Shown here: positions 1,124 to 27,553 of the stretch, in pieces
Position numbering within the stretch: the stretch's first letter is position 1
How the letters are laid out: each line of letters starts with the position of its first letter
Virus record (IMG/VR): IMGVR_UViG_3300045988_083460
Length of the DNA: 64,000 nt
From: a virus
Direction: 5' to 3' (one strand)
Notes under the pieces: model-generated
Database searches by the model: none
What the model was told of the DNA's origin: nothing
The model's input: the letters and a program-made list of their open reading frames with translations, nothing else
Program-made: the position numbers and the translations under genes

Positions 1124-1629
1124 ATGCCACTAGCTATTGGGTTCTTTATATTATTCATGGTTACATCTCTTATAATATTCTATAAAGACTGTGACTCTTT
1201 TGTAGAATATCTATTCTCTACCATTGTCGGAGTTGTGCTTTCAGCATTCGTCGCTTTCTTAATTATGTTTATAATTTGTGGTATTGTTATTTTTGTTGAA
1301 CCCGCAACCTATTCTGCGAAAACCACTCAAACATATTCTATTACTGCTTTAAATGATAATTTTAGTTCCTATGTAGGTCGTTACTATACAGAGGATGGGC
1401 TTTATTATTCATTCTTATATCAAACAGATAAAGGTATAACTGCTAAATCTATTGAAGCAAATTAGTCTTATATCAAGAACACAAATGATGACCCATACAT
1501 AGAAGAAAATAAAATCCGTTTCAAAAACCCAGTTTTAAATTTCTTACTTGGACCTCGGTCTGTTGAATACACCATCTATATTCCAGAAGATTCATTTATC
1601 CAAGAGAATTATGTAATCGACCTTGAGTA
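1124..1629 (+). CDS. small membrane protein (2 predicted TM helices); ORF reads through in-frame TAG at 1463-1465 and stops at TAA 1627-1629
   Basis: ORF track 1124..1465 ends in TAG; same frame stays open to TAA; hydrophobic N-terminus; followed by intrinsic terminator. Confidence 0.5.
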
Positions 1630-1631
1630 AA

Positions 1632-7266: not shown

Positions 7267-7980
7267 GTGAAATGGTCGGAAATTCTTCCTCAAGAGGCAC
7301 TGGATTTAAGTGTTCAACTTGAAAATCATGCTTTAGAAGAGCGCTCTAAAGGAAAGATTTTATTTCCAGAATAGGATAAAATCTTTAGAGCGCTTAATCT
7401 TACGCATCCAGAAGATGTAAAAGTTTGTATTGTAGGACAAGACCCATATCATACTCCGGGCGCAGCAAACGGGTTAGCATTTTCTATTTCTGATGGGAGC
7501 CCCATTCAACCATCTTTAAGAAATATTTTTAGCGAGCTTAATAGCGATTTAGGGATTTCAATTCCGCAGTCTGGAGATTTAACATCTTGGGCAGAAAGAG
7601 GAGTATTGCTTCTTAATGCAAGTTTAACTGTCTATGAACATCAAACCAATAGCTGTGTTAATTGGGGATGGAGTAGGTTTACGACAGCGGTGCTGAAAGC
7701 CGCAACCCAGTTGGCACAACCTATTGTTTTTATGCTGTGGGGAGCTAATGCTCAAAATTTATTAAAAGATTTAAATTCTAGTCCTATGGTATGGGATGGA
7801 CCTGGAGTTGCCAGAGAGAATTTAATTAAGAAAGCTTATATTTTATCTTCCCCTCCAAGTCCTTTTAGTGTAAGTAAACCATGTAAAGGAACTCCTGCGT
7901 TTAAAGGTAGTAAACCGTTTTCAACAGCAAATAATTTACTGCTTTCTATGGGTGGAGAACCGATTGATTGGAGTTTATAA
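7267..7980 (+). CDS. ung: uracil-DNA glycosylase (family 1); GTG start; one in-frame TAG at 7372-7374
   Basis: motifs GQDPYH and LLLNASLT; TAG falls at the position that is Gln in E. coli Ung (YPPQKDVF vs FPE-TAG-DKIF); no TAA/TGA between 7267 and 7980. Confidence 0.8.
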
Positions 7981-10004: not shown

Positions 10005-10091
10005 AAGTTATCGACAGTAACTATAAATAATTGCACAGGTAAGGCGTGAGTGAGGCTGATATGCGTTAAATAAAATACTCACTTTATCTAT

Positions 10092-10167: not shown

Positions 10168-10229
10168 TTTAAGAGGACAGACCCAATAGGAGGGCCCTCT
10201 TGCTATAAGACGTATACAGCAAATCTATT

Positions 10230-10302: not shown

Positions 10303-10386
10303 CTAAATAGCTAGCGTCTTGAAAACATTTGAAAAACTTTTATAAATATGATATAATATTTATAGAAAGTAAGAAAGGAAGTTGCA

Positions 10387-10588
10387 TATGGATAAGAAGT
10401 TATATCTCGCACAACTCGCGGCCGAGGCTCTTTCTTGTTATAAAAATGAGGATAGTATTTGTGATGCTATTTGGCTTATGAATGGTGGAGTTGGTGGCCC
10501 CGAGGAACAGTGGGAGAACTTTAACGCAACTTTCAAGGATACCTTTGGTATTTCTTATGATGAAGCTAAACAACTGAATCTTTTTTGA
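10387..10588 (+). CDS. hypothetical protein
   Basis: ATG with RBS AAGGAAG after promoter/leader copy. Confidence 0.45.
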
Positions 10589-10701
10589 AAAACAATAAAA
10601 AATATTGTATAATATTTATATAAGGCAGACACAGCAAATCTTTTATTAAATAAAACACTTATTTTTGGTTTAAGAAAGTTTATTTATTCTGCCTTGAGCT
10701 T

Positions 10702-10778
10702 GGGTCGGTAGCTCAGAAGAGTAGAGCGCTTGCCTGTTAAGCAAGATGTCGTGGGTTCGAGCCCCACCCTTCCCGCCA
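10702..10778 (+). tRNA. tRNA-Asn (anticodon GUU)
   Basis: D-arm GCTC..GAGC, anticodon arm CTTGC-CTGTTAA-GCAAG, T-arm GTGGG-TTCGAGC-CCCAC; acceptor stem has 2 internal mismatches. Confidence 0.6.
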
Positions 10779-10904
10779 AAGTCGAGTTTGTGAGTAGCGC
10801 CGCGACTTTAACCCTAAACTCTCAATTCGTCCACTGCGAACTAAAATAATAGGCTGGCCCAATAGAGCGACGGGTAGTTCTGAAACAAATAGTTGCTCTT
10901 TTAT

Positions 10905-10981
10905 GTTCTCGTGGTGCAATAGGCAGACACGCGTGGTTTAGAACCATGATGTTGCGGGTTCGACTCCCGCCGGGAACACCA
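10905..10981 (+). tRNA. tRNA with anticodon UAG (Leu, CUN) but type-I architecture (short variable arm)
   Basis: acceptor GTTCTCG/CGGGAAC, anticodon arm CGTGG-TTTAGAA-CCATG, T-arm GCGGG-TTCGACT-CCCGC, A73, CCA. Confidence 0.55.
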
Positions 10982-11138
10982 GATGGTTCCGGTGACATTG
11001 TCTTAAACCCATATAACCGGCGGAGCTATGGCCCGTAGTTGAAGACTGGATTTCTTGTCGTAAATGGCCAAGCATTTATGATGGCTAGTCAGTATTAAAA
11101 GAGGAAGCCTTGGAACTCGATCAATACCATAGAAATAT

Positions 11139-11225
11139 GCGCGTGTGCTGGAATCGGCAGACAGGCGAGCTTGAGGTGCTCGTGTTCGTAAGAGCGTATG
11201 GGTTCAAGTCCCATCATGCGCACCA
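11139..11225 (+). tRNA. tRNA-Leu (anticodon GAG), type II
   Basis: acceptor GCGCGTG/CATGCGC, anticodon arm CGAGC-TTGAGGT-GCTCG, long variable arm, A73-CCA. Confidence 0.75.
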
Positions 11226-11329
11226 TGGTTTCTACTGATTTCCCATGCCCAATAAGTCAGAAGTGTGATATATGTGAACGACGAGGCGCAAAGCACACGG
11301 GGTGCGTACGACCCTTCCTCGTCTTATAC

Positions 11330-11406
11330 GGTGGCGTAGTTCAGTAGGCTAGAACGTCGGCCTGTCACGCCGAAGGTCACGGGTTCAAACCCCGTCGTCA
11401 TCGCCA
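11330..11406 (+). tRNA. tRNA-Asp (anticodon GUC)
   Basis: anticodon arm TCGGC-CTGTCAC-GCCGA; T-arm ACGGG-TTCAAAC-CCCGT; G73-CCA. Confidence 0.7.
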
Positions 11407-11407
11407 A

Positions 11408-11450
11408 TTTGAAAAACAATAAAAAATATTGCATAATATTTATGTAAGGT
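11408..11450 (+). promoter_or_regulatory. sigma70-type promoter TTGAAAAACAATAAAAAATATTGCATAAT
   Basis: TTGAAA, 17-bp spacer, TG-extended CATAAT/TATAAT; copy of the 10568 promoter. Confidence 0.5.
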
Positions 11451-11620
11451 TAAGAAAGAACAAAGTATCGCAAGTCGTATATAGGCAGCGATAGCGCGCA
11501 AGCGAATCAGCAATGCGGTGTCCCTTTTAGGTTGATGCCTGGCACATTGGACTGTAGTAGCCGATAAATTAGAGCGTAGTTCTCCTTGATTGACACGACC
11601 AATCATCTTAATCACAATAT

Positions 11621-11696
11621 GGGGCATTAGCTCAGTTGGGAGAGCGCCTGCCTTGCAAGCAGGAGGTCACGAGTTCGACCCTCGTATGTTCCACCA
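11621..11696 (+). tRNA. tRNA-Ala (anticodon UGC)
   Basis: GGGGCAT acceptor with G3-U70 wobble, anticodon loop CTTGCAA, A73-CCA. Confidence 0.8.
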
Positions 11697-11948
11697 TAGG
11701 TATCTACTAATAATTATATATGATACCGTCTAATAATTACAGGTTTTTATTGATTTCATTGCCATAAGAACAATAGGGCATTCCTATTTCCGTCCTTAAT
11801 AGAAATAGGTGGTTTTCAGTGACGCCGCTGTTCACCAACTAGAAGATAAGTTAATATTCTCTTTATATATAGTAATGACAGTATAGCTTATAATAAACAA
11901 TGGCTATTATTAAATAAGACAGAAAGAGATTATTAAAAGTGCAGATAT

Positions 11949-12023
11949 GCTCGGTTAGTCAAGTGGTAAAGACGCTGGCCTTTCACGCCAGAAACACGGG
12001 TTCGACTCCCGTACCGAGTACCA
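11949..12023 (+). tRNA. tRNA-Glu (anticodon UUC)
   Basis: anticodon arm CTGGC-CTTTCAC-GCCAG; T-arm ACGGG-TTCGACT-CCCGT. Confidence 0.75.
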
Positions 12024-12051
12024 TTAAACAATAGAAAAGGAGATTGCTATT

Positions 12052-12288
12052 ATGAAGAATGTTCACGGGAAGTTCAACTCTTTCGCAGAGCTTGGTAAGG
12101 CTCTCGGAATTAAGGTTCCGCAGAATGTGGAAAAGGAACGTAAGTGTTCTAATTGCGGAAACCCGCTTCGCAAGATTGGTAATACAAATGTTTATATTTG
12201 TGATTATTCCATTCTTGAGGACAACGAGTTGAATGGAACTCCCGTGCAGGTGTTCACCAAATGTGGAGCCGTCGAACTTAGCGATTAA
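12052..12288 (+). CDS. small zinc-ribbon protein inside the tRNA island
   Basis: 78-aa ORF with CSNCGN...C...C motifs, RBS AAGGAG. Confidence 0.45.
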   Translation: MKNVHGKFNSFAELGKALGIKVPQNVEKERKCSNCGNPLRKIGNTNVYICDYSILEDNELNGTPVQVFTKCGAVELSD

Positions 12289-12327
12289 CTAAAAGACCTG
12301 AGCAAGTCAATAAACTGCTCTTTAAAT

Positions 12328-12405
12328 GGCCTTGTCGACGAAATGGCAAAGTCGCCACCCTCTCAAGGTGGAGGTTGATGGGTTCGAATCCCTCCAAGGT
12401 CACCA
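12328..12405 (+). tRNA. tRNA-like, probable anticodon CUC (Glu); T-stem imperfect
   Basis: acceptor GGCCTTG/CAAGGTC, anticodon arm CCACC-CTCTCAA-GGTGG, T-loop TTCGAAT, CCA. Confidence 0.5.
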
Positions 12406-12717
12406 GATGTATGGGTTCCACAGTTTCGAGTGAAAGAAAAGACGGGCCTTTCTTGTGCGTAGAGTATGGTACGGCAAGAATGAATTATTGATATGTGGCA
12501 CGCCCTTGCTTAATTAAAGTGAAACGGTTCCGGCTGATACATCCAGCGGAGGGGCGCAAGAGTACCGTGGCTATTAGAGTTATTCCAAAATATAGAATAT
12601 ATGAGGCGAGAATAAAAAGCGAGGAGTGGCAACGCAGACCAACTCAAGAGTGTCTAGGCGTTAAGTAGTAAAAATATATTTTGGTTTCATTATAATTTAA
12701 TTCTAATAGCTGTATAT

Positions 12718-12792
12718 CGCGGGAAGGGTGTTGGTTCCCAGTCGAGTCTCATAAACTCGATTACGCGAGTTCAATTCTCGCTCCCGCACCCA
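12718..12792 (+). tRNA. tRNA-Met/fMet/Ile2 (anticodon CAU); 1-72 mismatch
   Basis: anticodon arm CGAGT-CTCATAA-ACTCG; T-arm GCGAG-TTCAATT-CTCGC; C1-A72 mispair as in initiator tRNAs. Confidence 0.6.
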
Positions 12793-13190
12793 TTAGGTGC
12801 CAAGAACCTAAAGGCTCAGTTGAAGCAGCTTTATATAGCGCTGTATAAAGAAATCGGCTGGCTGAGAGATAAAATCTGGAGTAACGAAAAGGGTTCGGGG
12901 ATGGAAGTCAACGACCTCGTTAAAAAATTAAGTTGGCACCGATTATTTTCTCAATAGAGATTTATATATAAAAGACTAGCGAATCGGGAACCTATCAAAA
13001 GTGCAAGATAGGCTGTTAGAATGGCACTACCGATTAAAATAAATTAAGGAGGTATTAAAAAATGATGGATATTGATGATTTCATTTTCGCAGAAACAGAA
13101 GTTATTCATAGTGATAGATAACTTTTATGTTTAATGCGGCCGCCGATAGGTGATGGTTCCAAGCCCATAAAACGCAGAGGAAACATATTT

Positions 13191-13283
13191 GGAGGGGTGG
13201 CAGAGTAGGTTGAATGCGAGGGATTGCTAATCCCTTGATTGTGGAAACACGGTCCGGAGGTTCGAATCCTCTCCCCTTCGCCA
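13191..13283 (+). tRNA. tRNA-Ser (anticodon GCU), type II
   Basis: acceptor GGAGGGG/CCCCTTC, anticodon arm AGGGA-TTGCTAA-TCCCT, long variable arm, G73-CCA. Confidence 0.8.
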
Positions 13284-13716
13284 ATAGCCAATCGGGATAA
13301 GACACTGTTATATATGCCGGCCGCATATAAACGAGGCTATTGTGTCAACTACGAAAACCGACTAAGTAGTTCCGTTTGCTTGCGGTGACAATACAAGCGA
13401 TTAACGAAATAATAGGGCTTGTGAAGGTTTGGAAGTATAGCCGCCTGCCGGTCTCAATGAGACAAAAACAACTTCAATATAATCTCGTCAAGTTTTTCGG
13501 TACTGCTGCGGGAGCCTATGGGGAAGAGAAGGCCAAAACCGTGAGTTTACAAAAAAACTCTTGATGACAGAGGAAATTGGGTTCGAGCCCCATGCGGCCG
13601 GCTATGGCTGGCGGCTGGTGTATAGTTTGGAACAGCACGCTGTCAATACCTCTTGGGGTATATACCAAGACTTTATCTTCTGGGCCCGAGCCGAGGCGAA
13701 TATCGGCCATTTATAT

Positions 13717-13791
13717 GCTGGCGTGGCGCAATGGTAGCGCAAGTGATTTGTAATCACTAGGTTGCAGGTTCGACCCCTGTCGCCAGCTCCA
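13717..13791 (+). tRNA. tRNA-Thr (anticodon UGU)
   Basis: perfect acceptor GCTGGCG/CGCCAGC, anticodon arm AGTGA-TTTGTAA-TCACT. Confidence 0.8.
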
Positions 13792-14007
13792 TGCCCAAAA
13801 AGGGCTTTAGCGTGACAAACGCAAATGCGGCAAAGGAATATTATTCCTACCTGCGAGGCATTGTGGCCACTTTACCAAGCAGTCCGTATGCGCTATGGAA
13901 GTTAGCGGAGTCGGATAGGGTTAGATAGGGACGCCGGAGATTGTACCGCCAATCGAAGGCCAAAGGCTTACGTGCCGATACCCGATATTAAAATCTATTG
14001 CCAATAT

Positions 14008-14094
14008 GTTGTGCGTAGCTTAATTGGTAGAGCATCAGATTGTGGCTCTGAGAGGTGCGAGTTCAAGTCTCGTCGTACACCCCATAGACCTATT
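14008..14094 (+). tRNA. tRNA-His (anticodon GUG) with genomically encoded G-1 pairing C73
   Basis: anticodon arm TCAGA-TTGTGGC-TCTGA; extra 5' G (14008) opposite C73; CCA encoded. Confidence 0.65.
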
Positions 14095-14361
14095 CAGCAA
14101 CTTTAAATCATATGTTTTTGGTACATAATAAGATGAAAAGGGGTCTAGTAAAATGAATTTAAAAACTATAAAGCAGGCTCAAAAGAAATCTCCAGAAGAG
14201 CTGCAAGAATATCTTCATTTTAAACAGAGAGGTTCTATAACAAGAGCAAAGAAAGGAAAAGGTTCCTTTAATAGAAAACTCAAGCATAAAAATCTTTTTG
14301 AAAATTCTTAATTTTTATTATATAATATATATAGAAAGTTAAGGAAAGGAAGTTTTGAGTT

Positions 14362-14637
14362 ATGATTATTGCTTCTGCAATTAAATTTATTCCTCACTTT
14401 AGTAAGTACCCTGTAATTATTTGCGGGAAGCGCCATGCAGATTGCCTCGAAGAAGCATATCAGATGGGGTATGAATGGGATAAAGAAGATTTAGTGCAAG
14501 GGTTCTTGACTGATGATGCTAAATTTCTTGATAGATACGACGCAAAGCCTGAAGCCCGCAGATGTAGACAGTTAATTGTCGATGATGACAAATATCGAGA
14601 ATTGTTTAGTGAAGATATGTGGCTAGAGGAGGATTAA
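14362..14637 (+). CDS. hypothetical protein
   Basis: ORF after promoter/leader copy (14318..14361). Confidence 0.45.
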   Translation: MIIASAIKFIPHFSKYPVIICGKRHADCLEEAYQMGYEWDKEDLVQGFLTDDAKFLDRYDAKPEARRCRQLIVDDDKYRELFSEDMWLEED

Positions 14638-14858
14638 GTGTGAGAGACGCAAATCGCATTTCTAGTATTGCTAATAAGATTGAGGTTATTTGGCGAAAGA
14701 CTAATCCAAATCTGCGCTTTTGGCAATTTCTTGAAGTACTAGTTTGTAGATATAATGCAGATCATTCTCTTACTGATCGTAAAACTATGAATGAGATGTT
14801 CTATGTTGAGGATGAAGATTTTGAAAAGATTCTCGATAATATCCTAAGTGAACTTTAA
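14619..14858 (+). CDS. hypothetical protein
   Basis: ORF overlapping upstream gene end. Confidence 0.4.
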   Translation: MARGGLSVRDANRISSIANKIEVIWRKTNPNLRFWQFLEVLVCRYNADHSLTDRKTMNEMFYVEDEDFEKILDNILSEL

Positions 14859-14870
14859 AAGTTTACAGTC

Positions 14871-14947
14871 GCGTGTGTAGCTCAGTAGGCTAGAGCACCT
14901 GCCTTTTAAGCAGGGAGTCGCGAGTTCGAATCTCGCCACACGCACCA
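14871..14947 (+). tRNA. tRNA-Lys (anticodon UUU)
   Basis: perfect acceptor GCGTGTG/CACACGC, anticodon loop CTTTTAA. Confidence 0.85.
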
Positions 14948-15217
14948 TTTCTACTCTTGAGTGAGACACAACTGTTATTCTGTGCACAAGAATTTTCAGT
15001 CAAGGTTAAACCGAGTAGCGTTTCTGGTAGTCTGGCGTTACGAAGACTGCATGACTTAGGGACAACTTGATGACGATTCTCTGATTCAAGAAGAAGAAAA
15101 CAATTTCGTTCATCTCCGCATTTTGGTTTGTTTTGTTTGAGCGGGTTATCTGTGAACAAACGACAAAGTCGACTTGGGTTAGGTAGTACCTCTAAAAAAC
15201 AGGGAAACTACCATATG

Positions 15218-15292
15218 CAGGATTAGTGTTAGCGGCTAGCACGTCTGCCTTCCAAGCAGAAAGGGCCGGTTCAAATCCGGTATCTTGCTCCA
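15218..15292 (+). tRNA. tRNA-Gly (anticodon UCC)
   Basis: anticodon arm TCTGC-CTTCCAA-GCAGA; T-arm GCCGG-TTCAAAT-CCGGT. Confidence 0.8.
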
Positions 15293-15519
15293 CCCCTCGT
15301 AGCCGGGGGCGAATAGACTGCGGGAAGCTCCTCCTCGGAGGCGTATAAAGGAAAGCCACGCCATTCTTCGGCGGAAAGGTTGAAAGTGATGAGCCGGGTG
15401 TCAAAAAACTTTCTGTTGGCGAACATAACGCTGGGCTGTCGTCGAGGTATGCCCTAAGGCCTCAGACTGGGGAAATGGTTCTCCTCAATGCGGGTGACGC
15501 CGAAACGAACCTATTATAT

Positions 15520-15596
15520 GCTTCGGTAGTTCAGTTGGTTAGAATACGCGACTGATAATCGCGAGGTCGGCAGTTCAAATCTGCCTCGGAGCACCA
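15520..15596 (+). tRNA. tRNA-Ile (anticodon GAU)
   Basis: anticodon arm CGCGA-CTGATAA-TCGCG; T-arm GGCAG-TTCAAAT-CTGCC. Confidence 0.8.
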
Positions 15597-15835
15597 ACCG
15601 AATGTCAGCCTTGATAGATGGCAGGGTGAATACCTAACGCAAAATTCTATCATGTGCAAAGAGTTCGGTTCGAAAAATTCTTTGTGGGACAAAGACCACA
15701 GAGGCCATGCTACACTAGGGTGTCATGCTGCTTTGACTAGAGTGTAGAACAAAAGGCTTTTGTTTATCGAGTTCGCCCGTCAGTGGAAGCAGCTCCAAAG
15801 TAACTCGATTAGGGCTGGGGACGCTCAGCTTACAT

Positions 15836-15910
15836 AGGGCGATCGGTTAATGGCTAAACCAATGGTCTCCAAAACCATGACTGTAGGTTCGAATCCTACT
15901 CGCCCTGCCA
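15836..15910 (+). tRNA. tRNA-Trp (anticodon CCA)
   Basis: perfect acceptor AGGGCGA/TCGCCCT, anticodon arm ATGGT-CTCCAAA-ACCAT, G73-CCA. Confidence 0.8.
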
Positions 15911-15928
15911 ATAAAAGGGGAGAGTGCC

Positions 15929-16180
15929 ATGTCTATAGCAAGTTATGCAGAAGTTCGCGATATGGTAATCCGTGGTGATAATGGTATCAATCAATACTGC
16001 ATTATTGCAGTTGATGAATTTTCCTTTGAAGATTACCCTATTTATGCAGTTGATAGAAATGAAGCGATTAGTCTTATTGATAGGACTAATAGCTTAAATA
16101 TGCAACGGGTTCTCGAAGTTTATAACTATCAACAAGATCTGGAAGAGCAGTTCAAAGAGTTTCGTACATGGAGAATATAA
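15929..16180 (+). CDS. hypothetical protein
   Basis: ORF with RBS AAAGGGGAG. Confidence 0.45.
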   Translation: MSIASYAEVRDMVIRGDNGINQYCIIAVDEFSFEDYPIYAVDRNEAISLIDRTNSLNMQRVLEVYNYQQDLEEQFKEFRTWRI

Positions 16181-16195
16181 AAGGAGGTCGATAAA

Positions 16196-16429
16196 ATGGT
16201 AATGGATATTAATATCAAAAGCACAAGTGATGTTGAGCGTCTAAATGCCGTAGCGAGTAAAACTCCAGATGTACTTTGGGTTCATTCTAATGACGGTATG
16301 ATTATGGTTGATGCTCGTAGTCTGCTTGGTTTATTTGCTCTAATTGGAAAGCCATGTAAATTGGTTGCAGAAGATAGTACAGACTATAAAATTCTTGCAA
16401 GAGTAGCAAGAAAAGCTGGAGTAGCTTAA
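16196..16429 (+). CDS. hypothetical protein
   Basis: ORF with RBS AAGGAGG. Confidence 0.45.
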   Translation: MVMDINIKSTSDVERLNAVASKTPDVLWVHSNDGMIMVDARSLLGLFALIGKPCKLVAEDSTDYKILARVARKAGVA

Positions 16430-16441
16430 TGCTCCTTATTT

Positions 16442-16518
16442 GCCCCGTTAGCTCAGCTGGAAAGAGCAACCGCCTTCTAAGCGGTAGGTCATTGGTTCAA
16501 GTCCAATACGGGGTACCA
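16442..16518 (+). tRNA. tRNA-Arg (anticodon UCU)
   Basis: anticodon arm ACCGC-CTTCTAA-GCGGT; D-arm GCTC..GAGC. Confidence 0.8.
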
Positions 16519-16599
16519 TCTCTATTAGTTTAAAAGTGGAAAACACAAGAGCGCGCGTCTTGGTTGTGAGTTGAGCATCGCCTCACATAGAGAGCCTAT

Positions 16600-16674
16600 G
16601 GGCCATTAGCTTAACAGGCAGAGCAGTAGGTTGAAGCCCTACGGGACGAGGTTCGAGTCCTCGGTGGCCCACCA
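16600..16674 (+). tRNA. tRNA-Phe (anticodon GAA)
   Basis: anticodon arm GTAGG-TTGAAGC-CCTAC; T-arm CGAGG-TTCGAGT-CCTCG. Confidence 0.8.
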
Positions 16675-16746
16675 GTCCGCAAGGACAAAATTTCTTGAAG
16701 TGTTATATACCCCTTTTGCTTATATAATTAACAAGAGGGGTCACAT

Positions 16747-17062
16747 GGGGCCGTAAAGGTTTCGACGGGGCATTGAAGGATTAAAGTTCACGGGTATGCA
16801 CACCCCCTTAAGGGGCAACAAAAATTAACTGACAACGATTATTTCGAGAATTATCTTGCGGCTTGAGCTAAGCTCGCCGCTTAACCCTTGAGTTTCTTTG
16901 TTTACTCTCTTAAACAAAGTGGTGGAGGTAAACCAGTACGCTTAATGGAGTGTGGTTTGTTAAAGCCTATCCCACTTAATGGATAAAGTTTAACTATCGT
17001 GTGAAAAGACTTTAATTATATAGGTGTTTCGGACGCGGGTTCGACTCCCGCCGGCTCCACCA
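16747..17062 (+). ncRNA. ssrA: tmRNA (ssrA), about 316 nt; predicted tag ends ...NDYFENYLAA then TGA
   Basis: 5' GGGGCCGTAAAGGTTTCGACGGGG and 3' GGACGCGGGTTCGACTCCCGCCGGCTCCACCA closely match E. coli tmRNA ends; internal ORF AATTATCTTGCGGCTTGA encodes NYLAA-stop. Confidence 0.8.
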
Positions 17063-17092
17063 GTTAATAATAAAAGTAGGAAAGGATTTATT

Positions 17093-17356
17093 ATGGAATA
17101 CTTTTTTAATGTCTCAGTTAAATTAAAGACAGTAAAAAGTAAAGTGTTTAAGCGGAATGTTCTTTTAGTAGCAAATTCTCCTTGGGAGGCGATGAACATC
17201 GCTGCGAGAGTTTTTTCCAAAACTACTGTAGGAGGAGAGCCTTTAATCATTCTTGATGCTTCTGCGGAGAGAGATAATAAGTATGAGTGTGTTATTATAA
17301 AAGACACTCTTTATGAAGATGAAGATTATTTGATGGAGGATTCGTATGGAAATTGA
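17093..17356 (+). CDS. hypothetical protein
   Basis: ATG with RBS AGGAAAGGA; ORF-track start 17024 lies inside the tmRNA. Confidence 0.45.
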   Translation: MEYFFNVSVKLKTVKSKVFKRNVLLVANSPWEAMNIAARVFSKTTVGGEPLIILDASAERDNKYECVIIKDTLYEDEDYLMEDSYGN

Positions 17357-17798
17357 AAGAAAGTGGATTCTTCAAAGAGTTCCTACCGAATTTCGATTAG
17401 TAAAAAATTCTCAGGTAGAGCAATTTTATGTTTCGACGAATCCAGAAGTGCGATTACGACATAACCCGGCAAGTAAAGAGCCTTTTAGAATTACCGTAAA
17501 AGGTGAAGGCTCTTTAACAAGAGAAGAAATTGAAACAGAAATTTCGGAAGATTTTTACAATCAGCTAAAAGATTTTGTCGGTAAACCTCCAATTAAGAAA
17601 AATTATTCCGTTTTTAATTGCGGCGGGTATCCGCTCACGGTTTCTGTAGTAGATGATGGAGCTTTTATCTATGCAGAAATTGAATTTGAATCAGAGGAGC
17701 AGGCCCGCGACTATCAGTTTCCTATTGATGATGCTATTGAAGTGACGGATGATTCAAATTACAAGATGAAAAATTATTGGTTACGTACTCGTAATTAA
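17346..17798 (+). CDS. CYTH-domain protein (triphosphate tunnel metalloenzyme / CyaB-like)
   Basis: N-terminal MEIERKWIL signature (EXEXK motif) of CYTH proteins; about 150 aa. Confidence 0.65.
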   Translation: MEIERKWILQRVPTEFRLVKNSQVEQFYVSTNPEVRLRHNPASKEPFRITVKGEGSLTREEIETEISEDFYNQLKDFVGKPPIKKNYSVFNCGGYPLTVSVVDDGAFIYAEIEFESEEQARDYQFPIDDAIEVTDDSNYKMKNYWLRTRN

Positions 17799-17872
17799 AA
17801 TTTAGACCCGTACTGCAAAGAACTCTTTACCTGTTGTTTGAACTGGAGAAAAAGATGATGGGTCTAGTATAT

Positions 17873-17949
17873 GCGCCAGTAGCATAACGGAGAGTGCACA
17901 GGGCTACGGACCCTGGTTTGTGGGAGTTCAAATCTTCTCTGGCGTACCA
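17873..17949 (+). tRNA. tRNA-Arg (anticodon ACG)
   Basis: anticodon arm CAGGG-CTACGGA-CCCTG; acceptor GCGCCAG/CTGGCGT. Confidence 0.7.
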
Positions 17950-17952
17950 TAT

Positions 17953-18040
17953 GCAGAGATGGCCGAGTCTGGTTTATGGCGCCTGCCTAGAAAGCAGGAG
18001 GTCGAAAGATCCGTGGGTTCAAATCCTACTCTCTGCGCCA
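17953..18040 (+). tRNA. tRNA-Ser-like, type II, anticodon AGA (A34)
   Basis: perfect acceptor GCAGAGA/TCTCTGC, anticodon arm CCTGC-CTAGAAA-GCAGG, long variable arm, G73-CCA. Confidence 0.65.
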
Positions 18041-18316
18041 TATTGGTATCTTACATACAAGTCTGAAAGGCAGTAAGAATAAATCGTAGGGCCTTAAATC
18101 CGAGCCAGTAAAATAGAAGAGCTATACTTCGAGATACCCTTCGAGGATTGGAGCAACGAAGGTAAAAAAATAAAGTCCCCAAGATGTTTTCCGGTATCAG
18201 TACACAACCGGCATAGAGCAGAAGGGTTTAGGGTCGGTGCCTCGTATAGCACTAGAGGAAACGATAAGGACCAGGCATGGAAATCTGCGGAAGTGCGAAA
18301 AACCCTAAGTTAATAT

Positions 18317-18393
18317 CCGGGTGTAGTTCAGTTGATTAGAACGCGTGATTTGGGATCACGAGGCCGTGAGTTTGAGTCTCACCACTCGGACCA
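18317..18393 (+). tRNA. tRNA-Pro (anticodon UGG)
   Basis: anticodon arm CGTGA-TTTGGGA-TCACG; T-arm GTGAG-TTTGAGT-CTCAC. Confidence 0.75.
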
Positions 18394-18662
18394 CTCGCTC
18401 CCTAAGAGCGAGAATATGTATCACTCCTTTCCTATATATATAGACTCAATACAGCAAATATATGCAAATATACTTGTATAAAAAGATTTTACTAAATAAA
18501 TCTTATTTAGAAAGCTAAGAAGCATTTTCTTTTTGAAGGGAAGCCAAGAAAATGTTGAGCATATGGGGCAAGCCCTTTTGAGTCTAGTCTTTAGAAACTT
18601 TTGAAAATATTAAAAATAAATGATATAATATTTATAGAAAGTTGAGAAAGGAAGTCTTAAAT

Positions 18663-19295: not shown

Positions 19296-19369
19296 AGCGG
19301 ATTGGTGTAATGGTAACACGCGGGACTTTGACTCCCTTGTTAGAGGTTCGACCCCTCTATCCGCTGCCA
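19296..19369 (+). tRNA. tRNA-Gln (anticodon UUG)
   Basis: perfect acceptor AGCGGAT/ATCCGCT, anticodon loop CTTTGAC, G73-CCA. Confidence 0.7.
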
Positions 19370-19616
19370 TATACCGCTTTAGTGTAGCGGTCTGCACGCT
19401 TGGCTCTGAACCAAGAAGTTTTCGTTCAACACGAAGAAGCGGTGCCAGTAATAGAAGCAATACGTACAGAAATCGTAAATAAGACTTCTATTGTCAGGAT
19501 GTAGGATTGAAAGCGTCCACCATTTAAAGAGTGGCGAGTAAACCTGCAGGGCTCGCCTTTGGCGTAGTAGCACACTGACGAGGTTCTCGATTAACCTTAT
19601 CCAAAATCGTTTATAT

Positions 19617-19733
19617 GGGGAGTTAGCTCAGTTGGTAGAGCGCGTTATAGTTTGGTCTTGTTAAAGACCGTAACAGCAATCTTTAACTTGCTTTGGGTGC
19701 ACGATGTCGCAGGTTCGAGTCCTGCACTCCCCG
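19617..19733 (+). tRNA. tRNA-like gene with about 49-nt insertion in the anticodon/variable region; anticodon undetermined
   Basis: perfect acceptor GGGGAGT/ACTCCCC, canonical D-arm (GCTC-AGTTGGTA-GAGC) and T-arm (GCAGG-TTCGAGT-CCTGC) separated by 66 nt instead of about 22. Confidence 0.5.
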
Positions 19734-19923: not shown

Positions 19924-20011
19924 GGGTCAGTAAAGTGCTAAAGTAGACACCCCGGTCTGTAAAACCGGTGCTTTCGAGCTCGAGTGGGTGCGATTCCCTC
20001 CTGGCCCACCA
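19924..20011 (+). tRNA. tRNA-Tyr (anticodon GUA), type II
   Basis: anticodon arm CCGGT-CTGTAAA-ACCGG; variable arm with GCT-TTCG-AGC hairpin; A73-CCA. Confidence 0.7.
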
Positions 20012-20040: not shown

Positions 20041-21162
20041 ATGAATATTGTCCATACAGGAAATCGTTTTTAGGTATATGGTGACGATGTAAAAACTTAT
20101 AAAGAGTTACCAATCGGAACCTATACAATCGGTTTCCATCCCCAAATGGGAATTTGGCTTTCTGTTCATAATAATTTGCAGATTGGCGAAGAAAAAGTTT
20201 ATGGCTCGCATAGTCATAAGGTAGAGAAAGTTTTCAACTCTTTCGATAAGTCCGAGCGAAACTTTGGTATAATTCTTTCTGGTAAGAAAGGTATTGGCAA
20301 ATCTCTTTTTGCAAGAATGATTGCGGATGCCGCGATCAAGCGAGAAATGCCAGTGATTGTAGTCGATTCTCCTATTCCCGGAATTAGTAATTTCCTCAGT
20401 TCCATTGAACAAGAAGTTGTTATTATCTTTGACGAGTTTGAAAAGACTTTTGCCAGGAATGATGACGGCGATCCGCAGGTAGGACTTTTAAGTCTATTTG
20501 ATGGGATTGATAATGGAAAGAAACTTTTTGTTATCACTTGTAACGATACAAGAAAATTGAACGAATTTCTTATCAATCGCCCTGGTCGTTTTCACTATCA
20601 TTTTGAGATTGGCTGTCCTACAGCGGATGAAGTGCGGGCATATATGATGGATGCGCTTGGAAGCGGTATGGAAGAGGAAATTGAAAAGGTTGTTAAGTTG
20701 TCGCAGGTCGCGGACATTACTTATGATAGCCTAAGGGCTATTGCTTTTGATTTGAAACAAGGTTATCCTTTGGAGGAAACCTTAATGGATTTGAATATTA
20801 ACTATGAGAGAGGTGTTCTCTTTGATGTTAATGTTCGTTTGACTAATGGTTGGGTTATGACTGCATATAATTATAATCTCGATCTTTATGCCAAAGAGGT
20901 TCAGTGTCTTCGGTTTAAAAAAGATAAGAATGATTTCTACCTTTCTTTTGATCCAGGAAAGATTAAATCTATGGATGGTACTCTCGTACTTATGGGCGTA
21001 GATGCTAATTTCTATTGTGATTTTGATGCTTTCGATTATGATTACCCCACTGAGGAAGAGAGTGCAAAGGCTAGAAAGGAATTTAACGAAAAAGTAAGGG
21101 TTGAAAATGCAACCTTTACTAAGGTTTCAATTTATGGAGTCAATAAGTATATTGACCTTTAA
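20041..21162 (+). CDS. AAA+ family ATPase; in-frame TAG at 20074-20076
   Basis: Walker A GKKGIGKS, Walker B VIIFDEFEK, sensor-1 ITCN, arginine-finger region NRPGRFHYHF; RBS AGGAAAGGAAG before ATG 20041. Confidence 0.75.
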
Positions 21163-21557: not shown

Positions 21558-21813
21558 ATGATTACTATTGGTAAAAATATAGATAATAAAGTTTTTTATG
21601 GTACAGTTCATTTTTTATGTGATTACCAAAGTGATGTTGCTAATCTCCCTAAAAACCGCAAGCCGGGCAGTTCAGCCTACGTAATTGAAAATGGAAATAG
21701 ATATATTTTCAATTCTGATCATGAATGGGTGTTGTAGCACTCTGGTGGAGGCGGAGATTAGCCTCTTCCTCCAGAAGATACAACTATTATTTATGATGGC
21801 GGACTAATTGGCT
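21558..21813 (+). CDS. hypothetical small protein; 2 in-frame TAG
   Basis: RBS AAGGAG; frame open through TAG 21729 and 21756 to TAA. Confidence 0.45.
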
Positions 21814-21829
21814 AAAGGAGGGAGTGACT

Positions 21830-22390
21830 TTGGCTGAAGTTGTTTATAAAACAATATTTTAGTTCAAGCGAGGAACATCAGAGAAGTGGACCGAATTAAA
21901 TCCAATTCTTCGTCAAGGTGAGCCGGGATTTGAAATAGATACTGGAAAGTTAAAAATTGGAGATGGAGCCACCGAGTGGAAATAGTTAAAATATATAAAT
22001 AGTAGTTTGGTAAATGTTGATGTAGACAATCAATCTATTGTTATTGATGGAATTGGACAGATTTCATTAAAAGGATTTGCAGAAGCATCAACAGGGCAAT
22101 CTATTAGAAAAAGAGAAGATGGCACATTAGAGTGGTATACTCCAATATCTTAGGATAAAGTAATAGAAACTATCTCTATCGGAAATAAAGATTTGCCGGT
22201 TGAAGATAATAAAGTTACTATTCCGGCGGGAACAGAAGAAAATCTTGGTTTAATTAAGGGGAGTAGTTAGAATAATTAGATAAAAATACTTTCAGATGGA
22301 ACCGGAGAAATTAATTCTGTAGGACTTGATAAAATAGTGGATGTTGAAGGTTTTACTTTAATATTAAACTGTGGGACAGCAGTAGACTAA
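21830..22390 (+). CDS. tail-fibre protein A with conserved N-terminal fibre module; 6 in-frame TAG
   Basis: TTG start after AAAGGAGGGAG; motif NPILRQGEPGFEIDTGKLKIGDGATEW shared with genes at 22411, 24688, 26096; frame open to TAA 22388. Confidence 0.55.
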
Positions 22391-22410
22391 AATAAGGAGG
22401 CATTTTAAAG

Positions 22411-23472
22411 ATGGCCAATGAATTAAAAACTAGAATCCAACTTAGACATGATACCGAGGAAAATTGGACTTCAGTTAAGGACTCCTTTATTCCTCTCGTT
22501 GGAGAGGCTTGTCTTACCACCGATGGCGAGAATAAAGGAAAAGTAAAATATGGTGATGGAACAAGCACTTGGGGTTAGTTAGAATATTCTGGTGGAAAAG
22601 ATATTGTAGAAGTTGATTCATCTATTGTAAAATTTGATGATGATTTTACATTTACCTATACTTTTGGTAAATATGCTCCTGGAGGAGATGGATCTGTTAA
22701 TATTCCCGCGACTGGAAAAACATTAGATCAATTACTGCTAGATGCTTTTGCGGAAGAAAAAAATCCTACTATTACGCAACCTTCTGTTAGTATTTCCTCT
22801 AGTCAAATGAAAGCGTATGAAGCAGGCACTAATGTAACTCCAACTTATACTGCAACTTTAAATAAAGGATCTTATCAATACGGCCCAGACACTGGAATTA
22901 CAGCAACCGGTTGGAGCGTCCAATTTGATGAAGAAACAAAAACAGAAGCTACTGGAACTTTCTCTGAAATTCAAGTTGAAGATGCTACTAATTTAAAGAT
23001 TACAGCAACAGCTAATTATGGGAATGGAGCTATTCCTGTTACAAATCTTGGTTCTGAATATGTAGAAGGACAGATTAAAGCTGGATCTAAGTCTAATAGC
23101 ACAGGAGCTATTACTGGATATCGCTAGATTTTTTATGGAGTTAATAATTCTACAGATCCTTTAACTAGCGCGATTATTCGTTCTTTAACAGCAAGCAATA
23201 AAGCGGCAGCCGCAATGACTATTAATAGCATTAAAGCAAAAAGTGATACTAAGAGAATTATTATCGCAGTTCCTCAATCTTCTGGGCTTAAAGTTACCGC
23301 AGCTAATATTACTTCTAGTTTGAACGCAGATGTAACTTCTAGCTATGTAAAGCAAGGACCAGTGCAAGTAGAAGGAGCAAATGGATTTACCGCGGTTCCT
23401 TATGATGTATTCGTTTATCAACCTGCTTCCATTGATCCAACTGAGGATCATAAGGTTGTAATTGGAAAGTAA
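22411..23472 (+). CDS. tail-fibre / receptor-binding protein B; 2 in-frame TAG
   Basis: N-terminal RIQLRHDTEENW...KYGDGTSTW module; ORF-track fragments 22807..23127 and 23215..23472 lie in the same frame joined by TAG. Confidence 0.6.
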
Positions 23473-23489
23473 GGAAGGAGGAACAAATA

Positions 23490-24662
23490 ATGGCAGTAAT
23501 TAACAAAGATATTGCATATATGGCGTTACCTCTGAGTATTCGTAGAGGAAATCCTTTCCCTATTGATGAATATTCAGTATGGTATGATATGGAAGAATTA
23601 ACAACATATGCTCAATCTAGTCCTGTAGCATATGTTGGTTAGGTAGTTACCTTAGTTAATGAAAAAGAAAATACAGTTGAAGCGTATATGATTCAAAATG
23701 CTGCTGGCAATTTAATGAAATTGGCTTCAACTACTGCTTCTGGTGATTTAACGGAAGATGTTTTAGAGCTTCAAGGAAAAGTTTCCGCATTAGAAACCTC
23801 TGTTGGTACCAAAGAAGAAGAAAGTTCAATAACAGCTTCTAATCTTTGGGCAGCCATTGAGGAAGTTAAAGCAGCTTATGAAGCAGCTGATAGTTCTATT
23901 AATGGAAAATTTAATGATTATTATAATAAAACAGAAGCAGATTCTAAGATTGACCAAAAAATTGCTACTGCAATAAGTTCAACTTATAAACCTGCTGGTT
24001 CCATTATGTTTAGTTTCCTTCCTACACTTGGAGCTGATCAAGAGGGAAAAGTATATAATATTATAGATGCTTTCACCACTACTGAAGACTTCGTTGAAGG
24101 AGCCGATAATAAATATCCAGCTGGAACTAATGTAGTATGTATTGACACTGATGATGCTGGAACTTACAAATGGGATGTTCTCGCGGGATTTGTAGATTTA
24201 AGTGGATACGAAACTACAAGTAGTGTAGATACTAAGTTAGCTAATAAAGTCGACAAAGTAGAAGGATCATCTTTAGTTCAAGATATTCTAATTGCTAAAT
24301 TATAGGGTTTAGCAGAAATCAAAGGAGTTAGTGATGAATTAGAAATTGATCCTGATGATAAAACTCTTGGCGTAAAAGCGATTGCATAGGAGAAAATTAC
24401 TGGCCTTCCCGCGGCTTTAGCAGAGAAGATTAAGAGTATAACCGTAGGAACTACTCCTCTTTAGGTTAGCGATGGCGCAGTTACTATTCCTATTGCTACA
24501 GCAGAGGCTCTTGGTGTAGTAAAAAGCACCACTAGTGAAAACGGCGTTTCTATTACAGGCGATGGAACTATGATTGTCAATAACATAAATATAGAAAAAA
24601 TTACTTAGACTCCTGGTACAGAGCTTATCTTAAATGGTGGAGATGCTACTGTTAGTGAATAA
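23490..24662 (+). CDS. tail-fibre protein C; about 5 in-frame TAG
   Basis: same frame as ORF 23688..24305, extends through TAG codons to TAA 24660; C-terminal domain paralogous to gene D. Confidence 0.55.
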
Positions 24663-24687
24663 AAATCAACTTGGAGGAAGATAAATA

Positions 24688-26025
24688 ATGGCTACAACTT
24701 TTAATACAAGAATCCAATTAAAATATGATACTTATGAAAATTGGGATACCAATAACCCCGTTCTTCTAAAAGGAGAAATGGCGGTTGTTGAAGTTCCTGT
24801 TGAAACTGGAGTTGCTCAAAATGAGCCTACCTATTTGTTAAAAATCGGTGACGGTGAATCAGATTTTAAAACTTTAAAATGGGTAAGCGGGACGGCCGCA
24901 GATGTTTATACTTGGGCTAAAGCGGCAAGTAAACCAACTTATGCAGCGACTGAAATTACCGGACTTGAAGATTTTATTGGAGAAAAAATTCAAGATACCG
25001 ATACACAATATTAGATTGTTAAAAATGGAGATATGGGTTTTAAGCTTCAATCTAGACCAAAAACTGGCGGATCTTGGACAGATGTAAGCACTATTGCTCT
25101 GACCGCTCCCACTTATAATTTAGTCGAAGGGACTACTAATGGTACTGTAAAATTTGGAGTTACTGGTTCTGAAAAAGAAGTAAAAGTTCATGGACTTGGA
25201 TCAGCAGCTTATACTGAATCTGGTGCTTATGACGCAGCTGGTAGTGCAGATACAGCAAAAAGCGAAGCTATCGATGAAGCTGCTAATGCCACCGATGAAA
25301 AAATTGCAGCTCTAAAAATCAATGAATATGCAAAAACCACAGAAGTAGATTCTAAAATTGGGGCAGCAAAAACAGAGTTAATTGGTGAAGGAAGTGGTTC
25401 TTCCACTACTATTAAAGGTGCTTATGATGAAGCTAAAACCTATACTGATTAGCAAATTGCTGCTAGAATTTCCTCTACTTATAAAGCCGGAGGATCTATT
25501 GCGTTCGCTTCTCTACCAGAACTAACTGCAACAGAAGAAGGAAAGGTTTATAACATTCTTGATAAATTCACTACTACAGACGATTTCGTAGAAGGTTCCG
25601 GGAAGAGTTATCCTGCTGGTACTAATATTGTTTGTATAGATGTGGGAGAAGAAGAATTTAAATGGGATGTTTTAGCTGGAATGGTAGATCTTTCAGCGTA
25701 TGATACAGCAGAGATAACTCAGGGAAAAATTGATTCCGCTAAGCAAGAGGCCAAAAGCTATGCAGATTCTAAAGTTAACGCTTTAGATAAAGAAGATTCA
25801 GCCGTAGAAAATCAATTTGTAACTGCGGTGTCTGAGACTGATGGTATCATTAGCGTAACTCGTGCTCAACCTACCATGGAGAATATCAACGGGTTACCTG
25901 CGGCTCTTACTAAAAAAGCTAATGATGCAGACTTAGCATCTGTTGCTAAAAGTGGAAAGATTGATGATCTAACTCAGACCGCTACAATTATTTTTAATTG
26001 TGGAAGTTCTAGCACAGTAATATAA
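24688..26025 (+). CDS. tail-fibre protein D; 2 in-frame TAG
   Basis: N-terminal module TRIQLKYDTYENW...LKIGDGESDF; ORF fragments 24688..25014, 25033..25452, 25642..26025 share one frame. Confidence 0.6.
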
Positions 26026-26033
26026 AATTTTAG

Positions 26034-26073
26034 ATAAAGCCCATATTTATTTAATAAATATGGGCTTTATCTT
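26034..26073 (+). terminator. rho-independent terminator
   Basis: AAAGCCCATATTTATT...AATAAATATGGGCTTT hairpin + TCTTTTTATT. Confidence 0.7.
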
Positions 26074-26824: not shown

Positions 26825-27061
26825 TCTATAATTAAAGGAGAAATATAATGCGCTGGTTAGTGAATTATATTCGACAAATATTTTGTAAACACGATTTTGT
26901 TTTTGATGAAGGTTGGGCAGAAAAAACAAGTGATTCAGGATCTTTTCGCAAAGGGATAAAAGTTTCTTGCTATTGTAAGAAATGTTCTTATCATAAATCT
27001 TGGTGGAAGTATTGACAATAAAAAATTTTTTTGATATAATATTTATAGAAAGTTGAAAGAT

Positions 27062-27388
27062 ATGAAAAACTGTTTGGATTGTAATAAATGTTGGGTTGTA
27101 AAAGACCCCGATCCAAAAGACGATACTTGTTTAGCTGCTTTCTGTAGCAAGTCTAAAACAAGAGGCATGAAATGCAATGAAATTTCATACCTAATGCCTT
27201 TAGGATATAATTCTGCGTTTGCAGAAAGTCCTCTTCCTGATGACCCATGGATTACTGTTGCGGAACATTGGGGCACTCTTAGAGAAAAATGCACCGTTCC
27301 AGATTGGTGTCCGGGAATGGAAGAGAATGGAGAATACAGTTTGTTCACAGATAAAACATCGGTTGATATTATGAAAGAGCGACAATAA
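27062..27388 (+). CDS. Cys-rich hypothetical protein
   Basis: ORF after promoter (TGATATAAT) and leader. Confidence 0.45.
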   Translation: MKNCLDCNKCWVVKDPDPKDDTCLAAFCSKSKTRGMKCNEISYLMPLGYNSAFAESPLPDDPWITVAEHWGTLREKCTVPDWCPGMEENGEYSLFTDKTSVDIMKERQ

Positions 27389-27477: not shown

Positions 27478-27553
27478 TGCGGAGTAGCGTAATGGTTTAG
27501 CGCAGGGGTCTCTAAAACCTCGGGAGTGGGTTCGAATCCCACCTCCGCTGCCA
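27478..27553 (+). tRNA. amber suppressor tRNA (anticodon CUA), Gln-type
   Basis: anticodon arm GGGGT-CTCTAAA-ACCTC gives C34 U35 A36; weak 1-72 pair (U1/U72) and G73 resemble tRNA-Gln identity; T-arm GTGGG-TTCGAAT-CCCAC; CCA encoded. Confidence 0.75.

Follow-up and report, generated by a model that had tools for sequence, protein, structure and literature searches.

Does the phage recorded as IMGVR_UViG_3300045988_083460 in IMG/VR translate the amber codon TAG, and if so, which amino acid does it insert and what part is played by the tRNA gene with a CUA anticodon that it carries? We address these questions in a stretch of 64,000 nucleotides, here called the window and analyzed at its full length, which is part of a phage genome of ~148 kb. 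The original prediction, made from the letters of the window, held that TAG is translated, that a suppressor tRNA reading it is encoded, and that the inserted amino acid is probably Gln; all three claims are supported. The reading that we favor, at a probability of roughly 0.88, is that this phage uses genetic code 15 (TAG as Gln), probably infects a host among the gut Clostridia, and employs the suppressor tRNA, hereafter tRNA(CUA), as a switch for its late genes. Coordinates of the features discussed are given in Table 1.

All credible genes of the window lie on the + strand, and after exclusion of spurious open reading frames (ORFs) overlapping with the tRNA array between 10 and 20 kb, our curated set comprises 60 genes. 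Fifteen of these contain a total of 47 in-frame TAGs, and the other 45 contain none; adding small or doubtful ORFs brings the number of interrupted reading frames to about 19, slightly below the 20 or more originally counted. Every one of the 60 curated genes terminates at TAA (45 genes) or TGA (15 genes) and none at TAG, which bears out and extends what had been claimed for the interrupted frames, in a tally that covers the window only, or ~43% of the genome. The tag reading frame of the tmRNA (tag peptide DNDYFENYLAA) also stops at UGA, as had been noted, according to both ARAGORN and Rfam. When genes are called greedily on the + strand with RNA genes masked, coding density rises from 72.1% under code 11 to 79.2% under code 15, in which TAG is sense, and is 70.6% under code 4, which makes TGA sense. 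A codon-usage log-odds score, trained on TAG-free genes and computed in three frames on both sides of the first TAG of each gene, is above zero in frame 0 and below zero in the other two, before as well as after that TAG, for 14 of the 15 genes; in the exception, ORF 35942, the TAG is probably upstream of the true start.

Domains and structural homologues likewise continue past the TAGs. In a Pfam search of proteins in which TAG was masked as X, domain matches cover 13 TAGs (6 in Phage_lysozyme2, 2 in Amidase_2, 2 in NAGPA, 2 in GIY-YIG, and 1 in ThyX). The Phage_lysozyme2 match extends over endolysin residues 3-165, the full profile; the NAGPA domain (residues 52-206) covers both TAGs of the cell-wall enzyme, which recur identically in 7 close relatives; and the GIY-YIG domain occupies residues 211-291 of its protein, with 2 TAGs within it. 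Alignments to homologues of known structure do not end at the TAGs: those of the uracil-DNA glycosylase (UDG) with PDB entries begin at query residue 3 and cross its TAG, and those of ThyX pass over the TAG in that gene. In the tail-fiber gene at 23490-24662, a C-terminal motif common to the paralogues sits past the last TAG, and full-length relatives exist. Two further TAGs lie near the start of their genes. That of the AAA+ ATPase is outside homology coverage, the AAA domain starting at residue 77, and its gene has a ribosome-binding-site-like AGGAAAGGAAG 5' of the ATG at 20041; that of the 153-aa protein is kept in close relatives, with AAA or GAA at this position in distant ones.

The simplest rival is that the in-frame TAGs are true stops, marking pseudogenes, fragmented genes, or errors of sequencing or assembly, and that the CUA tRNA is incidental. 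Nothing beyond the default standard-code reading recommends this explanation, and it conflicts with the domains and homologues that cross the TAGs, with the coding signal that stays in frame, and with the exchange of TAG for CAA or CAG between relatives described below. Assembly error in particular is excluded because the same TAGs recur in separate assemblies: the nine TAGs of the endolysin gene are identical in a 148.8-kb ENA contig, a Logan contig, and several IMG/VR contigs (the ENA and Logan contigs may share one sample, SAMN13293046/SRR10499448). We count this explanation as refuted.

Because the database collection had translated recoded relatives with TAG as Q, its protein matches would make a circular argument for Gln, and we rejected them as evidence. 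We instead compared codons at the DNA level across 80 related viral loci and 3 others, pooling all genes and counting distinct sequence contexts. Opposite the TAGs of the window, 191 of 410 non-TAG codons (47%) encode Gln (CAA or CAG), with Lys following at 57 (14%), Asn at 28, Arg at 24, Glu at 16, and Trp at 2. The reverse comparison agrees: of 86 positions with TAG in a relative, 34 are CAA or CAG in the window, where the overall share of Gln codons is 2.8%. Three endolysin columns are essentially invariant, with Gln (always CAA or CAG) in 34 of 35 relatives at aa40, 51 of 51 at aa225, and 49 of 49 at aa274. At least 30 distinct relatives have no TAG at all in the endolysin gene, and exchange runs in both directions: relative to the 63%-identical endolysin of locus L004, the window has TAG for CAA at three positions and CAA for TAG at six.

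The two endonuclease-like proteins behave similarly. At 4 of the 8 TAG positions of the GIY-YIG protein, a Gln codon, usually CAA, is found in the majority of the distant relatives, and at two further positions these mostly have TAG, the remainder being Gln codons. The Cys-rich protein has no Pfam match; its relatives have TAG three times and CAA three times at aa230 (EFDGPXH), and CAA (Q) twice, AAA (K), and ATT (I) at aa36, and the TAG in its WECXCDCG repeat aligns with the Glu of the WLCECSCG repeat, just as had been reported. The columns in UDG and ThyX are weak evidence for the amino acid. The UDG TAG had been placed at a Gln position, and Q does occur there in the Coxiella enzyme (3tr7), but the column is variable: the remaining four of the alignments shown have S, V, R, or A. 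At the ThyX TAG the PDB homologues have Arg. By these codon comparisons, Gln is the amino acid that fits the TAG.

ARAGORN finds 32 RNA genes in the window, every one on the + strand, including a 76-nt tRNA with anticodon cta at the place where a tRNA with loop CTCTAAA had been read from the letters, and this tRNA scores 59.8 bits on the Rfam covariance model RF00005 (gathering score, 29). Its anticodon loop (C34 U35 A36 A37 A38) closes a 5-bp stem, and it has G18G19, a TTCGAAT T-loop, a 5-nt variable loop, an encoded CCA, and the G73 originally noted. Positions 1 and 72, which had been described as a weak pair, are in fact a U·U mismatch; G2-C71, C3-G70, and G10 are present. The ribosome-binding site of the next gene begins 10 nt past the CCA. 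Rfam detected no theta (hepatitis delta virus [HDV]-like) ribozyme beside tRNA(CUA), down to an E value of 5.

A near-identical CUA tRNA occurs in 9 IMG/VR contigs in the same Ser(UGA)-Sup-Leu(CAA)-Cys(GCA) context, and tRNA(CUA) is 85.5% identical to one tRNA-Sup-CTA of the phage phAss-1. The 9 contigs and this phAss-1 homologue all have G73, and in none of them are positions 1 and 72 paired (U·U, C·U, or U·C, the last in phAss-1). A second, longer phAss-1 suppressor in the same alignment has a paired A1-U72. This adjacent tRNA-Sup-CTA (L001:3083-3173, OQ749652) is 91 nt long, with an insertion of ~17 nt in the variable region, and its acceptor stem resembles that of the window's tRNA-Gln(UUG), giving it a class-I-like, Gln-type body with a long extra arm.

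From its sequence, a supE-type tRNA-Gln origin of tRNA(CUA), as originally proposed, is plausible. Of the elements on which Gln identity depends, U35, G73, the open 1:72, G2-C71, and G10 are present, and acceptor positions 2-6 (GCGGA), like the C-G at 3-70, are those of the window's tRNA-Gln(UUG). The body, however, is not nearer to Gln than to Trp: by global alignment it is 71% identical to the tRNA-Trp(CCA) of the window, 68% to tRNA-Gln(UUG), and less to tRNA-Gln(CUG), and the first two values are too close to decide between a Gln and a Trp ancestor. The CUA anticodon is reachable by one base change from either tRNA-Trp(CCA) or tRNA-Gln(UUG), and G73 and a weak 1:72 are found in the window's tRNA-Trp as well; both of its tRNA-Gln genes align with A1-U72 and G73.

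Charging is a separate matter from ancestry. The major determinant for glutaminyl-tRNA synthetase (GlnRS) is U35 and that for tryptophanyl-tRNA synthetase (TrpRS) is C35, and the identity set of GlnRS comprises U35, G73, a weak or open 1:72, G2-C71, G3-C70, and G10. The elements that tRNA(CUA) shares with this set (U35, G73, the open 1:72, G2-C71, and G10) favor GlnRS. In Escherichia coli, supE (glnV, a tRNA-Gln with CUA) and su+7 (a tRNA-Trp with CUA) each insert Gln at UAG after a one-base anticodon change, so that a CUA suppressor derived from tRNA-Trp also receives mainly Gln. These two are mutated host tRNAs, whereas tRNA(CUA) has a phage gene of its own that is kept across a lineage; at 3-70 it has C-G in place of G-C, and its 1:72 is truly mismatched. 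An indirect charging pathway is likewise compatible with tRNA(CUA), since bacterial GatCAB tells a weak U1-A72 pair from G1-C72 (PMC2811023), and tRNAscan-SE called the phAss-1 homologue Gln (PMC10607447). Not all phage suppressors have such a Gln-like acceptor end: in an arbitrary sample of CUA tRNAs from viral contigs, with at least 120 loci and 49 usable tRNAs, 35 of the 49 had G-C or C-G at 1:72 and 24 of the 49 had A73.

These data also bear on the rival in which TAG is read as something other than Gln, be it Trp (by TrpRS), Glu (by a nondiscriminating glutamyl-tRNA synthetase, left unamidated), Lys, or pyrrolysine. We consider this very unlikely, the match of TAG to invariant Gln columns and the scarcity of Trp (2/410) and Glu (16/410) opposite TAG outweighing the second rank of Lys in the same counts. 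The 71% identity to tRNA-Trp and the G73 common to both would suit Trp, as would a study of theta ribozymes that predicted a Trp isotype for 19% of phage suppressor tRNAs. For pyrrolysine there is the ARAGORN label "Pyl," assigned solely from the anticodon; a tRNA-Pyl identity was ruled out by the canonical cloverleaf (G18G19, TTCGAAT T-loop, 5-bp anticodon stem) and the score on the general tRNA model, and no Pyl genes (pylS or pylBCD) occur among the annotated or scanned proteins of the window.

The TAGs are strongly biased by gene class. Nine genes hold 41 of the 47: the five tail-fiber genes have 16, the two cell-wall and lysis genes 11, the GIY-YIG gene 8, and the Cys-rich (zinc-ribbon-like) gene 6, such that 27 fall in tail-fiber and lysis genes and 14 in the two endonuclease-like genes. 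Single TAGs occur in UDG, ThyX, the AAA+ ATPase, the small membrane protein, the 153-aa ORF, and ORF 35942. Genes for replication, NAD metabolism, and RNA repair contain none, and the TAG-free genes include both gyrase subunits (A and B), DNA ligase, PhoH, nicotinate phosphoribosyltransferase (NAPRTase), NAD synthase, RNA ligase, a Thg1-like enzyme, and an 813-aa protein resembling the major vault protein. A 19-bp terminator-like hairpin at 26032-26072 closes the tail-fiber module.

Promoter-like motifs are distributed unevenly as well. The window has a single perfect sigma-70 consensus site, ~440 nt 5' of tRNA(CUA); a small TAG-free ORF (27062-27388) lies between the two, and a terminator scan gave no + strand terminator-like site in this interval. 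This site may drive tRNA(CUA). At a threshold of at least 11 of 12 matches, there are 13 near-consensus sigma-70-like sites, all with a 17-nt spacer and all intergenic, before TAG-free genes or tRNAs; none of the 13 stands directly before a TAG-rich gene, the nearest (58982-59010) being ~590 nt 5' of the GIY-YIG gene, from which two small ORFs separate it. Six promoter-like sites within the tRNA array (9725-18629 region) share the -35 hexamer TTGAAA.

In the mechanism that we propose, TAG would be a rare Gln codon, never a terminator, decoded by tRNA(CUA). The TAG-free genes, together with the suppressor tRNA gene and its neighbors, would be readable by an unmodified host and would be expressed first. 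The tail-fiber, lysis, and two endonuclease-like genes, in which TAG makes up 1-3% of codons, would yield full-length products only when tRNA(CUA) had built up, host enzymes had charged it with Gln, and it had out-competed the host release factor RF1. Under this model, tRNA(CUA) would act as a translational switch or timer for late, potentially harmful genes.

Alternatively, the TAGs may be leaky stops that set dosage, with inefficient suppression throughout infection keeping TAG-rich products low. The densest TAG use is in the endonuclease-like genes (2.1-2.6% of codons) and in the lysis genes, for which a low dosage is plausible, and the sigma-70-like site upstream of the GIY-YIG block suggests that its mRNA may be early. 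Tail fibers, however, are needed in quantity and yet have 16 TAGs, nine successive TAGs would leave almost no endolysin unless suppression were efficient, and the base following the in-frame TAGs (the +4 context) has no bias (chi-square P = 0.62) of the kind that would tune termination. We judge a dosage role unlikely.

Several points weigh against a code-15 phage with tRNA(CUA) as a late-gene switch. The body of the tRNA is as near to tRNA-Trp as to tRNA-Gln, and the charging with Gln and its insertion at TAG are deduced from sequence. Several TAG positions are Lys, Asn, Arg, or Glu in relatives, as expected of variable columns. Five TAGs lie in genes that are not obviously late (UDG, ThyX, the AAA+ ATPase, and the genes at 1124-1630 and 48055-48516), and the timing of the genes is read solely from what they encode and from promoter-like motifs. 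The window proteins scanned, ten of which, in the first 28 kb, are without a Pfam match, include neither a release factor nor an aminoacyl-tRNA synthetase; with neither gene in the window, the overcoming of RF1 is not explained. Finally, the avoidance of TAG as a terminator in the TAG-free genes would be expected as well if TAG were no stop codon in the host itself.

This last point leads to a rival without any code switch: TAG would already be Gln in the host, or RF1 would be missing there, and the phage tRNA would only add to the supply. It accords with the absence of TAG from all 60 termini, presumably early TAG-free genes included, and with the at least 30 other tRNAs of the phage, which merely supplement the host. 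It fits poorly with the limitation of TAG to a quarter of the genes, strongly clustered by function, and with the syntenic relatives. Some of the latter are recoded, with 18 to 26 in-frame TAGs per ~4,500 to 4,800 aligned residues (e.g., L011, L017, L019, L027, L029, and L047), whereas others, at a similar distance (60 to 69% lysin identity), have 0 to 1 TAG over 3,300 to 4,200 residues (e.g., L040, L046, L030, L041, and L025); the phage group therefore includes standard-code members. The nearest endolysins from isolated phages are those of Faecalibacterium, Oscillospiraceae, Evtepia, and Anaerosphaera phages, and Faecalibacterium and Oscillospiraceae hosts are not known to depart from code 11. 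These matches, together with the SPOR and weak SLH matches, place the host probably among the gut Clostridia. Moreover, published recoded phages and prophages live in standard-code hosts (bioRxiv 10.1101/2021.08.26.457843). We consider a recoded host quite improbable and continue to favor a phage that switches code in what would be a standard-code host.

Nucleotide similarity to known phages is confined to tRNAs, a megablast search of 24 kb against GenBank phages giving no match, and no terminase or capsid gene lies within the window. A close counterpart is phAss-1 (proposed genus Phassvirus; "Caudoviricetes code 15 clade" at NCBI), a human-gut phage of 136 kb with 36 tRNAs and with TAG in 28% of its ORFs, mostly virion genes; TAG as Gln was inferred from alignments, no dedicated aminoacyl-tRNA synthetase was found, and the predicted host is Clostridia/Eubacteriales (PMC10607447). 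Like the window, phAss-1 encodes tRNA-Sup-CTA genes, one of which shares the unpaired 1:72 and G73 of tRNA(CUA). The lack of nucleotide similarity outside tRNAs makes it a different phage lineage, and its three suppressor tRNAs lie beside an anaerobic ribonucleotide reductase gene, whereas the single one in the window lies between tail-fiber and RNA-repair-like modules.

The window also matches each feature reported by Borges et al. that we list here: in several clades (Lak, crAss-like, Jade, Sapphire, Agate, and others), recoding is concentrated in structural and lysis genes while replication genes are standard; suppressor tRNAs are phage encoded; close relatives differ in code; a homing endonuclease is heavily recoded; and recoded modules are dispersed over large genomes of ~150-200 kb (bioRxiv 10.1101/2021.08.26.457843). 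Some of those phages carry RF2 or an aminoacyl-tRNA synthetase, and the window shows neither. For crAss-like phages, Peters et al. (2022, PMC9523058) showed by metaproteomics that late structural proteins have Gln where their genes have TAG, and there too code 15 gives the higher coding density. The 7-point rise in the window exceeds the >5% threshold of Peters et al. for contigs of at least 100 kb, which applies to the ~148-kb genome, but is below their 10% threshold for contigs of 5-100 kb, the size class of the 64-kb window. Their phages infect Bacteroidota and have a gene content unrelated to that of the window, which is itself known from sequence alone.

All computationally testable hallmarks of phage code 15 are thus present: a CUA tRNA, read-through, the match of TAG to Gln, a gain in density, no TAG terminator, and a late-gene bias. 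We regard the window as a solid further example of an already described system (Borges 2021/22; Peters 2022; phAss-1 2023), adding another lineage in which TAG, as Gln, is concentrated in tail-fiber, lysis, and selfish-endonuclease genes; it does not alter existing knowledge, and it agrees with the published model, which casts recoding as a gate on late and harmful genes. For annotation, this genome and its ~148-kb relatives require translation table 15, as table 11 cuts the endolysin into ten pieces and fragments the tail-fiber and endonuclease-like genes too. The recoded and nonrecoded relatives form a natural comparison pair for testing the model and for asking how recoding arose.

Table 1. 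Features of the 64,000-nt window, with in-frame TAGs and the basis of each call
Feature	Position	Strand	In-frame TAGs	Basis or remark
Small membrane protein	1124..1630	+	1 (1463)	Frame-0 coding signal on both sides; basis without homology
Family-1 uracil-DNA glycosylase (UDG)	7267..7980	+	1 (7372, residue 36)	Pfam UDG; PDB alignments
tmRNA	16747..17062	+		ARAGORN; Rfam tmRNA, 116 bits, with alignment
Tandem tRNA-Gln(UUG) (19296-19369) and tRNA-Gln(CUG) (19373-19447)	19296..19447	+		ARAGORN; ordinary CAA/CAG readers, used as comparators
AAA+ ATPase	20041..21162	+	1 (20071, codon 11)	Frame-0 coding signal on both sides
Tail-fiber module, five genes (21558-21815, 21824-22390, 22411-23472, 23490-24662, 24688-26025)	21558..26025	+	16	Mtd_N domains
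Sigma-70 consensus promoter-like site, TTGACA-17-TATAAT, TG before second hexamer	27012..27040	+		Promoter scan
Suppressor tRNA, anticodon CUA	27478..27553	+		ARAGORN; Rfam; sequence read
ORF 35942			1
Cys-rich repeat (zinc-ribbon-like) protein, endonuclease-like C-terminal region	39126..39998	+	6	Sequence
Free-standing YqeY protein	41429-41878	+		PF09424, 32.2 bits (cutoff, 27)
153-aa protein	48055..48516	+	1 (48097, codon 15)	Called as a 153-aa gene in L002
Cell-wall enzyme (NAGPA phosphodiester glycosidase and SPOR domains)	50095..50949	+	2 (50326, 50575)
Endolysin (Phage_lysozyme2, Amidase_2, weak SLH match)	50952..52361	+	9	Pfam
GIY-YIG endonuclease-domain protein	59596..60507	+	8	Highest TAG density in the window (2.6% of codons)
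ThyX thymidylate synthase	60784..61410	+	1 (60922, residue 47)	Thy1 domain, residues 21-197

A more elaborate idea is that tRNA(CUA) belongs to a phage toolkit that enforces the code change, composed of the 1:72 mismatch, YqeY, and the RNA-repair-like module; taken as a whole, we find it doubtful. In such a toolkit, the conserved unpaired 1:72 could offset the lost G36 identity element. YqeY, whose homologues include the tail with which GatB and Deinococcus GlnRS bind tRNA(Gln) (PMC1865053; PMC2811023), might aid the Gln charging of tRNA(CUA) in trans; its gene is detectable solely in the four closest relatives, making its association with recoding across relatives uninformative. The adjacent TAG-free module (RNA ligase, RlaP, the Thg1-like enzyme, a kinase, phosphatases, and the vault-protein-like and DUF2828 proteins) might protect the phage tRNA pool.

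The tRNA array has some unusual members. A type-P1 twister ribozyme-like element at 13128-13185 (+) scores 51.7 bits, below the gathering score of 67.2, with an E value of ~4e-11 in a local search; its core nucleotides are conserved, and it ends 5 nt 5' of tRNA-Ser(GCU) (13191-13283). Self-cleaving ribozymes adjoining phage tRNAs are known for the HDV-like theta ribozymes, and the theta-ribozyme study does not mention twister. At 19617-19733 (+), Rfam reports a tRNA match of 49.8 bits that ARAGORN missed; it has normal acceptor, D, and T arms, no CCA, and a 55-nt insertion in the anticodon arm, and its fold is ambiguous. Another candidate missed by ARAGORN, at 19924-20010 (+), is probably a tRNA-Tyr(GUA) with a cloverleaf fold, a long variable arm, an odd D arm, and the anticodon loop CUGUAAA (Rfam matches it weakly as tRNA-Sec, at 33 bits), and it fills the only isotype otherwise missing from the array.

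Downstream of tRNA(CUA), the region 28857-33230 (+) encodes a DUF2828/DUF7788 protein (506 aa) followed by the 813-aa vault-protein-like protein, which has MVP shoulder and repeat domains (MVP_shoulder, E = 6e-18; Vault_3), a vault-like gene pair that is unexpected in a phage. The TAG-free cluster at 34271-47454 (+) resembles an RNA/tRNA repair and NAD-salvage module: its members are an RlaP nucleotidyltransferase, metallophosphatases, an RNase T-like exonuclease, an RNA ligase, a KTI12/AAA_33 kinase, an isochorismatase, a phosphoribosyltransferase, NAPRTase, NAD synthase, and the Thg1-like tRNA-His guanylyltransferase (45443-46297).

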